NCBI GenBank assembly: GCA_963758295.1 | Contig: CAVWUU010000004.1 | Span: 704,001 to 768,000, forward strand | From: Candidatus Eremiobacteria bacterium | GTDB lineage: Bacteria; Vulcanimicrobiota; Vulcanimicrobiia; Vulcanimicrobiales; Vulcanimicrobiaceae | Reading direction: 5' to 3' | Length of the DNA stretch: 64,000 bases | Part shown: positions 55,577 to 60,637 of the stretch, piece after piece | How the letters are laid out: every line of letters begins with the position of its first letter | How positions within the stretch are numbered: the stretch's first letter is position 1 | Position numbers and translations under genes: made by a program | Notes under the pieces: generated by a model | What the model was told of the DNA's origin: nothing | Seen by the model: only the letters and a program-made list of their open reading frames with translations | Database searches by the model: none

Positions 55577-56110
55577 TTAAGCGTTCGAACCCGCGGCATC
55601 TTTTTGCTCGCGGATCTGGTTGAGCACACGGACAAGGCCGCTCTGATTCCCCGAGAGCACGGTAACGAGACCGCGCAGGGGGCTTGCGAGCGAACCAACG
55701 AGTTTTGCAACGAGCTCGGATTTCGACGGCAACGACGCGAGGACGTTGACTTGCGCTGCATCGACGTACTTGCCGTCGACGTAGGCTGCCTTGATGCCGA
55801 GTTTCTTGCTGTCATCTGCGAACTTCTTAATCGCCTTCGCGGGAGCGACCGGATCGTTTCCAGCGAAAACGACACCGGTAGGACCGTGCAAATGCGATTC
55901 GAGCAACGCGGCGATGTCTTCGCCCGCTGCGCGTTTGAAAAGCGTGTTCTTGACGACTGCATACGTGCTGCCGTCTTTACGAAGCTCGCCGCGAAGTTTA
56001 GTAATCTCTTCGACGGAGAGGCCCGCAAAGTCGGTCAGGAACAAGTTTTGCGAACCGGCGAGCCGGTTGCGCAGTTCTTGTACCGCGGCTTCTTTACGTG
56101 CGGTTGGCAT
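55577..56110 (-). CDS. rplJ: 50S ribosomal protein L10
   Basis: 'GLSVEEITKLR', 'VVKNTL', 'LASLPSKSEL'. Confidence 0.98.
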   Translation of the reverse strand: MPTARKEAAVQELRNRLAGSQNLFLTDFAGLSVEEITKLRGELRKDGSTYAVVKNTLFKRAAGEDIAALLESHLHGPTGVVFAGNDPVAPAKAIKKFADDSKKLGIKAAYVDGKYVDAAQVNVLASLPSKSELVAKLVGSLASPLRGLVTVLSGNQSGLVRVLNQIREQKDAAGSNA

Positions 56111-58274: not shown

Positions 58275-58694
58275 TTACCGCGCCGCGAACGATCGCGCGG
58301 CGGCCATCAGCGCCGGCTGAATTTCAGCGAGCGGCTCAGTCCGCAACATAATGGCCGGAACCCGATCACCCAAATGCGGATTGCTCCCCTGGAACCAAGC
58401 GCGCGCAACGTTCGGATCCGCTGCGTTTGCGACCATCTGCGCTAACTGCAGCGTGAAACGCAGCACGTGAGGCCGTTGGGGCTCGCGCCCGGCCATCCAT
58501 TGCGCCACGGCGCGCGTTTCGCTTACATTGCCTATGGCAGCGACGGTGCCGGCACCTAGAATGTCGACCAGTTCCTGGACGACCCGATCCATCGGAATCG
58601 ACATTGCGTGATCGTGGGCCTCAAAATCACCCCGCTCGCCGCGTGGGCCGAGCGGACGGTCGCCGTTGCTTTCGTTAACTTCTTTCTTGAACAT
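58275..58694 (-). CDS. Xre/MbcA/ParS-like antitoxin-type protein
   Basis: HTH-like 'TVAAIGNVSETRAVAQW'; C-terminal 'ARAWFQGSNPHLGDRVP'. Confidence 0.65.
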   Translation of the reverse strand: MFKKEVNESNGDRPLGPRGERGDFEAHDHAMSIPMDRVVQELVDILGAGTVAAIGNVSETRAVAQWMAGREPQRPHVLRFTLQLAQMVANAADPNVARAWFQGSNPHLGDRVPAIMLRTEPLAEIQPALMAAARSFAAR

Positions 58695-58791: not shown

Positions 58792-58834
58792 AAGGCCAAG
58801 GCCCGGTCTCTTCTCTGAGACCGGGCCTTCGCCT
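58792..58834. terminator. Strong hairpin after the duplicated rplA 3' end
   Basis: aaggc-c-aaggcccggtctc-ttctct-gagaccgggcctt-c-gcctt. Confidence 0.7.
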
Positions 58835-58859
58835 TGCTAGCTAGCTGGGTGAGTGGGTC

Positions 58860-58901
58860 TTAAGCCGTCGTGCGGATCCGGTTCGGGTCGACCTTGACGC
58901 C
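58860..58901 (-). repeat. Duplicated rplA 3' end (att-like site)
   Basis: Encodes [13 protein letters not shown]; 23 bp (58879-58901) identical to 59955-59977 within rplA. Confidence 0.9.
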
Positions 58902-58964
58902 CCCGGCACCTTTCGCATATCTTGTCCTGCTCTTGGTCGTAGTGGCCGCCGCCGCAATCAGCGG

Positions 58965-59831
58965 CTACATTACATCGTTCGCGCTCCGCCGAGACACCGG
59001 GGACGCCGGCGATTGCGTCGCCCTGACGTGCGCATCCCACTGCGACCGTTCGAATAGATAGTCCGGCTCCTGCTGCGCCCAGGCGACATTAGAGAATGTG
59101 CCATCGGATACGGCCGCAAAGGTTCCGATCAGGAAATGAAGCTGCACGAACGAGTGCCATGACGTGATCAAACCGCGTTCATCGAGCGATGCGGTGTCGA
59201 TCGTCGGATACGGCGTTCCCTGACCGTCGTCCTGATAGAGCCGCGATGCAAAGGTCGCCTTGCAAAGACGATTGTCGGTGCGCCGCACCCACATCTCGCG
59301 CACGTTGTAACGCTGCGGATCGTGCAGAGGCCGCAAGCGCAGGTGCGCAACGTCCCCGCAGCCCTCGAGTGATTCATTTGCCACGAGGCTGACGTCGTAG
59401 CTGATGGCGGACCGGACGGTCGCGATCGTTTTGATGCCCTGCGGATCCGGAGTGTCGAACGTAGGTAGCACGCCCTGCGGCGCACTTTCATTGCGATACG
59501 GCAGAAAGGCGTCCGGAATGAGGTAATGCCGTCCGATCTTCACGTCGCGCAGCGAAAACATCGTTCCGGCGGTCACGCGATTCCACGAACGCCGGTCCGC
59601 GCGGCGCTCCACGACGTCTTCCGTCAGCGTTCCGAGAACGCGTCCCCTTCGAGAACCGGTCTGATCCATCACGTAGGCGATGTAGGGCCTCTGCGGCAGC
59701 GATGAAAGCCACGCGGCCGCCGCGCGATACCGGTCGGCGGCCGCGAGATCCGTCGGCTGCGCTCGCACCACGCTCGGCAGACAGGACGCAGCGGCAAGCA
59801 GAACCACGGCAATTGTTTTCACGACACTCAT
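58965..59831 (-). CDS. Hypothetical secreted protein (cargo between the rplA repeats)
   Basis: Signal peptide; beta-rich 'YDVSLV...HLRLRP...REMWV' resembling LolA/LolB-like folds (weak). Confidence 0.7.
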   Translation of the reverse strand: MSVVKTIAVVLLAAASCLPSVVRAQPTDLAAADRYRAAAAWLSSLPQRPYIAYVMDQTGSRRGRVLGTLTEDVVERRADRRSWNRVTAGTMFSLRDVKIGRHYLIPDAFLPYRNESAPQGVLPTFDTPDPQGIKTIATVRSAISYDVSLVANESLEGCGDVAHLRLRPLHDPQRYNVREMWVRRTDNRLCKATFASRLYQDDGQGTPYPTIDTASLDERGLITSWHSFVQLHFLIGTFAAVSDGTFSNVAWAQQEPDYLFERSQWDAHVRATQSPASPVSRRSANDVM

Positions 59832-59869
59832 ACGATGCCGGACTACTCGGTGTTTCGGCTTCGGAAACG

Positions 59870-59908
59870 AAAGCGGCCGGCTGCCATCAATGGCGCCGGC
59901 CGCTTTCA
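59870..59908 (-). terminator. Terminator after rplA
   Basis: gaaagcggccggc...gccggccgctttc. Confidence 0.7.
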
Positions 59909-59935
59909 GTTCTGCCGATTTCGCGGCTGCCCGCT

Positions 59936-60637
59936 CTAGGCGGTGGTTTTCACGCGGTTCGGGTCGACCTTGACGCCAGGGCCCATCGTACTCGTGAAAG
60001 TTACGCTCTTGAGGTACGTTCCCTTCGCGGCCGCGGGCTTCGCGCGCACAATGGCGTCGAGCAGGGCGTTGACGTTCTCGAGCAGCTGATTCTCATCGAA
60101 GCCGGCCTTGCCGACGATCGTGTGAATGATGCCGGTCTTGTCGAGGCGATATTCGACCTTACCGGCTTTGATGTCGCGGATCGCGCCCGCGATATTCGCC
60201 GAAACGGTGCCGGCCTTCGGGTTCGGCATCTTCTGCGCGAGGATACGGCCGAGTTCCTTACCGACTTGCGCCATCATGTCCGGCGTTGCAACGGCAACGT
60301 CGAAGTCGGCGAAGCCGCCCTTGAGGCGGTCGATCAGATCTTGGTCGCCGACGATATCGGCGCCCGCTTCTTGCGCGGCCTTGGCGTTGTCGCCCTTGGC
60401 GAACGCAATGACGCGGACCGTACGTCCCGTGCCGTTCGGCAGCAGAACCGTACCGCGAACGTTCTGATCGCTCTTCTTCGGATCGACGCCGAGGCGCACG
60501 TGCACTTCGACGGTTTCGTTGAACTTCGCCGTGGCGTTCTTCTTGACGATCGAGATGGCTTCGGACGCCGAGTACAGCGTCTTCTTGTCGAAATTCGAAA
60601 CGAGGTTGCGGAAACGCTTACCGTGATGTTGCGGCAT
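59936..60637 (-). CDS. rplA: 50S ribosomal protein L1
   Basis: 'KFNETVE', 'MPNPKAGTV', 'STMGPGVKV'. Confidence 0.98.

Follow-up and report, generated by a model that had tools for sequence, protein, structure and literature searches.

A duplicated rplA 3' end, probably the scar of recombination with DNA from a related bacterium and not of a mobile element

Introduction

Homology-facilitated illegitimate recombination, as known from the laboratory, is rare and usually deletes about as much DNA as it inserts (PMC3240628, in part). It is recognized by a microhomology of 3-10 bp at the joint, with RecA dependence and DNA uptake as further criteria. The same mechanism, a recombination with a single anchor, was proposed by the authors of PMC5361080 (in part) for the orphaned 3' ends of T6SS/Rhs loci, and illegitimate recombination is mentioned in passing in PMC12359135. 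Site-specific elements are also known to use ribosomal-protein genes, with rplL, rpmE, rpmG, and rpsI serving at their 3' ends as attB for IMEs and ICEs (PMC5704250, in part). The name rplA is absent from the main text of that review, and in a literature search with most subscription papers outside its scope, rplA, attB, and "integration site" were not found together; one MRSA paper, in its excerpt, combines rplA, genomic island, integrase, and insertion site.

Here we describe a bacterial rplA gene behind which a second rplA 3' end is stranded. Overall, this scar is real and fairly ordinary, and recombination with the DNA of a related bacterium, not a mobile element, is its likely source.

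Results and Discussion

Layout of the rplA Locus

The source assembly comprises 3.03 Mb in six contigs and is 82% complete. The window, that is, the whole stretch of 64,000 nucleotides that was analyzed (G000:C4:704001-768000), contains the locus, which sits within a 1.4-Mb contig. On the minus strand, the order is rplK, rplA, a hairpin, the cargo gene, a 63-bp spacer, an orphan rplA end, a second hairpin, an xre-type gene, and a STAS gene, followed further on by two convergent carbonic anhydrase genes, rplJ, and rplL (Table 1).

Table 1. Features of the rplA scar, in coordinates of the window.
Feature	Position	Strand	Basis
rplA (ribosomal protein L1, 233 aa), intact, with incoming VKTTA* tail (asterisk, stop)	59936..60637	-	PF00687, E 6e-66
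23-bp block, proximal copy (codons for GVKVDPNR), within rplA	59955..59977	-	Repeat search
Incoming replacement tail VKTTA*, differing from R[VI]R[AT]TA* of G002, G003, and G005	59936..59954	-	Comparison with relatives
Incoming hairpin 3' of the rplA stop, probably the terminator of rplA in the donor	59864..59912	-	Folding and shuffles
Cargo: 288-aa predicted secreted protein, predicted LolA-superfamily fold	58965..59831	-	PF17131 below cut-off; predicted structure
63-bp spacer, + strand readable as a membrane helix; joint at 58901/58902	58902..58964	+	Hydrophobicity
Orphan original rplA end, 42 bp	58860..58901	-	rplA ends of relatives
Distal copy of the 23-bp block, within the orphan rplA end	58879..58901	-	Repeat search
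Original rplA hairpin, near-identical in G003 directly behind rplA	58792..58835	-	Folding and comparison
xre/MbcA/ParS-type antitoxin-domain gene	58275..58694	-	Domain search; directly behind rplA in 15/122 related loci

The initial annotation had described an exact 23-bp direct repeat, a divergence beyond it that preserves the protein, a hairpin behind each stop, and a single secreted-protein gene between the copies, and each of these was recovered. The two copies are spaced 1,076 bp apart, the 19-nt tails beyond them differ at 10 of 19 positions with TTA* kept in both, and the interval holds one ORF of 288 aa with an N-terminal hydrophobic leader. Folding confirmed both hairpins (proximal arms 59864-59881/59895-59912, z = -6.0; distal arms 58792-58810/58817-58835, z = -6.5), and none of 200 shuffles folded equally well. 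A simple terminator scan listed neither hairpin, and their terminator role is therefore one that we infer. The region of the orphan L1 end (58860-58964) is in frame with the cargo, with 21 open codons past its TAG stop; this shared frame is probably a matter of chance (1 in 3).

Original and Incoming rplA Ends

Relatives were compared in a set of 122 rplA loci from 120 genomes, including two loci with frameshifted rplA ends and some short ones. The predicted empty site was found in G003, a member of the same genus and the nearest relative at L1 (95%), where rplA ends in R-V-R-A-T-A* and leads directly into a hairpin closely resembling the one at 58792 and then the xre promoter region; this sequence aligns to the distal copy at a score of 160 and to the proximal copy at 49. 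In G002 and G005, rplA runs straight to xre, with the ends RIRATA* and RIRTTA*, respectively, and xre lies 151-230 bp behind rplA in 15 of the 122 loci, which represent three genera. Because these relatives without the insert run from rplA into xre, the distal copy is the original rplA end. The VKTTA* tail, the first hairpin, the cargo, and the spacer are the added part, and the claim that an insertion had supplied a replacement rplA 3' end gains support from the G003 empty site. Relative to G003, no host sequence is missing, i.e., the insertion is purely additive.

VKTTA* is the native L1 end in G011 and G123, both of which are published, so no conclusion hangs on the unpublished G004 and G024 that were counted among the loci. 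The tail nearest to the incoming one is that of G045 (2 of 19 nt different), and the incoming hairpin had no match among the fetched relatives. The pattern of change between the two tails, in which more than half of the bases are replaced and TTA* is kept, points to two ends that may each have arisen as a functional L1 tail in a lineage of its own.

The duplication is beyond chance, because the local alignment of the rplA tail to its own downstream interval scores 23 at this locus, whereas none of 122 other loci exceeds 14. The 23-mer itself occurs only as these two copies in the 3.03-Mb genome, even at three mismatches. It is also the commonest spelling of its peptide, present in 10 of 112 rplA sequences including the source (9 of the 111 others, G003 among them), and for this reason the exact match gives no more than modest evidence of a crossover core. 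This serves as a warning that codon preference alone can give a conserved gene end a short exact repeat that mimics an att site.

The Variable rplA-rplJ Slot and Its Cargo Gene

The rplA-rplJ interval is highly variable, ranging from 164 to 9,342 bp in the 97 of 122 loci where rplJ was reached. The GC content of the insert (0.61-0.66) is similar to that of its flanks. L10 (rplJ, 55577-56110 of the window) is 86% identical to that of G003 and 93-95% identical to those of G002 and G005, although G003 is nearest at rplA/L1, which suggests that the far flank of the slot may have recombined as well. In a sister genus (g30, loci L085-L094), the slot behind xre-STAS is long, with no rplJ reached inside about 10 kb in nine of ten loci, and includes malonate decarboxylase genes.

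Cargo matches, mostly distant paralogues, are present in 331 of the 348 genomes of the family, and the cargo family is found mostly in Vulcanimicrobiota. Close orthologues number four (G002, 65%; G005, 53%; G275, 44%; G235, 42%), and those of G002 and G275 lie in the rplA-rplJ interval, beside a carbonic anhydrase gene and without the repeat. The cargo looks like a chromosomal gene of the variable slot rather than the cargo of an element. Its structure model, built with five sequences (pLDDT 67.8), matches LolA-superfamily structures (best E 7e-8, at low TM-scores), and for the product a periplasmic location and a lipid-binding-type fold are likely. Scans with the cargo returned four metagenome, three genome, and no viral loci, none of them in the donor arrangement, and an rplA match was present in none of the four metagenome loci. 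Cargo fragments at 100% identity were detected in three soil runs from two studies, one of which also contained a near-identical piece of the carbonic anhydrase gene, a weak observation; a run may also be the source sample.

The Spacer and the Joint

Similarity to rplA ends abruptly at the border of the orphan end and the spacer. Read on the + strand, the spacer encodes a 19-residue hydrophobic stretch that was equalled by 20 of 5,000 random genome stretches and by none of 5,000 shuffles, and it probably represents the severed tail of a convergent donor gene for a membrane protein. The spacer peptide has no credible homologue: it gave five weak non-self matches (E 0.003-0.01), four of which were rejected as hydrophobic stretches in unrelated proteins and the fifth as antisense of the G002 cargo. 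By its sequence, a short G run at the joint leaves room for up to about 3 bp of microhomology.

Probable Integrase-Free Capture of Chromosomal DNA

We consider it reasonably probable that the scar records an integrase-free capture of a piece of a relative's chromosome, with homologous recombination in rplA at one end and illegitimate joining at the other. The donor would likely be a related bacterium with the same rplA-rplJ slot, and the 1,076-bp insert a piece of its chromosome. Its DNA, carrying the rplA end, the hairpin, the cargo, and the tail of the next, convergent gene, would have entered probably by natural transformation and crossed over homologously within rplA; its other end would have been joined illegitimately in the host rplA, 42 bp before the stop, by homology-facilitated illegitimate recombination. 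In a variant of this scheme, the fragment would first have been circularized and then integrated by one crossover in the 23-bp block. L1 is left intact, with a conservative tail swap and no downstream loss, and the unit lacks predicted means of self-movement. Selection for an intact rplA could favor such loss-free products.

Capture is supported by an incoming tail of a type normal for L1 in the family, a cargo native to the lineage, and a GC content like that of the surroundings. The features of an illegitimate joint are present, namely the abrupt end of similarity, a spacer that reads as a cut coding frame, and no att features. That homologous DNA entered is shown by the donor-type L1 end, with the upstream anchor in rplA being putative. 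Against the linear version stands the fact that identity starts precisely at the joint, which is predicted by a crossover in the block and would be chance in the linear model. In addition, comEC and dprA both extend across two frames in the source assembly, which counts against capture; in its favor, comEC is in one frame in all five relatives tested. No donor with the cargo directly behind rplA was found in the genome, metagenome, and viral cargo scans or among the 122 loci.

If an upstream crossover anchor exists, rplA should be donor-like before the 23-bp block. Divergence from G003 is 0.20 over the last 90 nt before the block vs. 0.089 elsewhere. Private changes, scanned without G005 and G057 (frameshifts), are in excess over about 130 nt (p <0.001 to 0.029), as they also are in controls (G002, p 0.002 and 0.041; G249, p 0.010). 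One trio gave a Fisher p of 0.005-0.008 with controls that were not significant, in a window picked after the data had been seen, and the upstream tract ranks 2/45, 4/50, and 5/46 among close pairs. In a tree test without G004, grouping with G003 was not rejected (AU p 0.285). Given significant controls in other trios and a tree test short of significance, the upstream donor tract is not counted as support.

Is rplA an Attachment Site?

It is also conceivable, though unlikely, that the scar is a decayed or trans-mobilized site-specific element resembling a CIME, for which a recombinase would have made the crossover at the 23-bp block, with the rplA end supplied by the element and the integrase lost or never carried. 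Such an element would account for the exact start of identity at the joint and for the purely additive insertion. Elements of this kind insert into ribosomal-protein genes at the 3' end, and CIMEs that lack an integrase are known (PMC5704250, in part); large serine recombinases are present in 113 of the 348 family genomes.

However, the scar is a singleton. A codon-degenerate rplA motif matched in 170 of the 348 family genomes and twice in four of them; the two-copy matches other than the source (G111, G252, and G253) were rejected as orphans, being whole or overlapping rplA genes on separate contigs. A second orphan rplA end was found neither among the 170 motif-matching genomes, of which the source is one, nor in the 122 fetched loci, which partly cover the 178 genomes without a motif match, and in neither set was repeated use of the site with other cargo seen.

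Also at odds with a CIME-like element, no recombinase was detected behind rplA in the loci read. The rplA-rplJ intervals of the 122 loci (rplJ reached in 97) contain no Xer-like match and no orphan end, and 29 large serine recombinase queries, searched independently of ORF calling, gave no match in 1.27 Mb downstream of 123 rplA loci (29 of 30 found in the control). A Pfam scan of 173 proteins downstream of rplA, for the most part single representatives of the 278 clusters that a crude ORF caller had yielded, returned metabolic and regulatory genes, with IS-type transposases in three loci, and no site-specific recombinase family. Searching the 82%-complete source genome for tyrosine and serine integrases had a divided outcome: an XerC/D-like gene and one frameshifted integrase occur elsewhere in it, and no serine recombinase was found. 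The frameshifted gene, a tyrosine integrase at G000:C1:650761-651293, is the only non-Xer one found in that genome.

The searches for att-like features gave a similar picture. No viral contig carries an rplA end, and the single viral match to the rplA motif was rejected as an unrelated sequence. Symmetry at the would-be attP and attB is not above random (458/500 and 335/500 random stretches, respectively, score equally), although the test is crude and weak tyrosine-integrase sites might not pass it. No flank motif is common to the spacer and four other scars. Furthermore, the cargo is a chromosomal resident of the slot in relatives. The proposal of the initial annotation that rplA acts as attB for a site-specific system is thus left unsupported, for want of recurrence, a recombinase, a viral copy, symmetry, or a shared flank motif.

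Other Scars in the Same Genome

A related structure lies at G000:C1:188717-191598 (L171), where purH and a propeller gene are followed by an orphan purH end, 1.25 kb of lower-GC DNA, an orphan end of the propeller gene (43 bp), and a glyoxalase gene. The orphan purH end is recoded (109 bp aligned, 84%) and ends in RYFLH*. G003 has purH, the propeller gene, and the glyoxalase gene without orphans, and G050 and G056 have purH beside the glyoxalase gene. The orphan and full purH copies differ right at the joint, and their exact 23-bp run is internal; since this scar lacks an identical core at the joint, such scars form in the source genome without one.

Further candidates were noted. About 2 kb downstream of G000:C2:54088 (-) lies an orphan end of a flgG-type gene, a recoded copy of its final 20 codons (63 bp, 76% identical), and a diverged 48-codon copy of a gene 3' end occurs 907 bp downstream of G000:C3:107800 (-). 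At G000:C4:573549, a 16-residue match to the gene's C-terminus 3,474 bp downstream is either an orphan end or a paralogue. Tandem arrays of 165-270-bp units at G000:C4:1131098-1132570 and C6:132015-133400 have in common a short palindromic repeat that is found elsewhere in the genome too.

We regard it as quite improbable that the phylum possesses a dedicated, integrase-less route for the capture of individual genes behind housekeeping genes via 3'-end replacement, driven by an unrecognized trans-acting factor or an unusually efficient one-anchor pathway. If it did, the scars at rplA, purH, flgG, and C3, all within a single 3-Mb genome, would be footprints of that route. No new system is revealed by the single rplA locus. 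Scar counts across genomes would gauge natural gene gain by one-anchor recombination, which is rare in the laboratory.

Order of Events and Integrity of the Locus

A very improbable alternative reverses the polarity: a cargo-bearing allele would have been swapped in first through ordinary recombination, and a second event would have returned the xre-STAS allele together with 42 bp of the rplA end. The final structure would be the same, the purH locus needs two such steps, and the rplJ identities given above make the far flank look recombined. Nevertheless, this history invokes two events where one is enough, and xre behind rplA, being common to three genera, is likely ancestral.

Hardly credible is a local tandem-duplication remnant or an assembly artefact, even though no reads or contigs bridge the joints (public runs contain at most a tenth of the words) and other genes of the assembly have apparent frameshifts: a decaying copy would not alter so many tail bases yet keep TTA*, the two hairpins are unrelated, G003 has no cargo here, the locus is inside a long contig, and, as weak evidence, identical cargo pieces occur in the soil runs.

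Comparison with Known Systems

The rplA scar is a well-resolved natural case of an accessory gene added behind an essential gene without mobile-element machinery. Like CIMEs, it has a direct repeat containing the terminal part of the targeted gene, an undisrupted gene, and no integrase, whereas in our 122-locus sample no parent element, recurrence, or att arms of the kind seen for IMEs, ICEs, and CIMEs were found at rplA (PMC5704250, in part). It resembles integrase-less hotspots in being a variable slot with high turnover between conserved genes (rplA and rplJ) and without an integrase; under their model of double homologous recombination, however, no gene end is orphaned (PMC5635113, in part). 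As in the displacement arrays of T6SS/Rhs loci, a new 3' end with a downstream gene has pushed the old 3' end back, although here an essential housekeeping gene serves as the anchor, the swapped tail looks neutral, and a single unit is present instead of an array (PMC5361080, in part).

The likeness to homology-facilitated illegitimate recombination consists in a single homologous anchor, putative here on the upstream side, together with one illegitimate joint, foreign DNA of about 1 kb, and no integrase (PMC3240628, in part). Unlike the usual events of that type, which are paired with a deletion of similar size (PMC3240628, in part), the event at rplA involved no host loss, and both this and the stranding of the old rplA end follow from the position of the joint inside the anchor gene.
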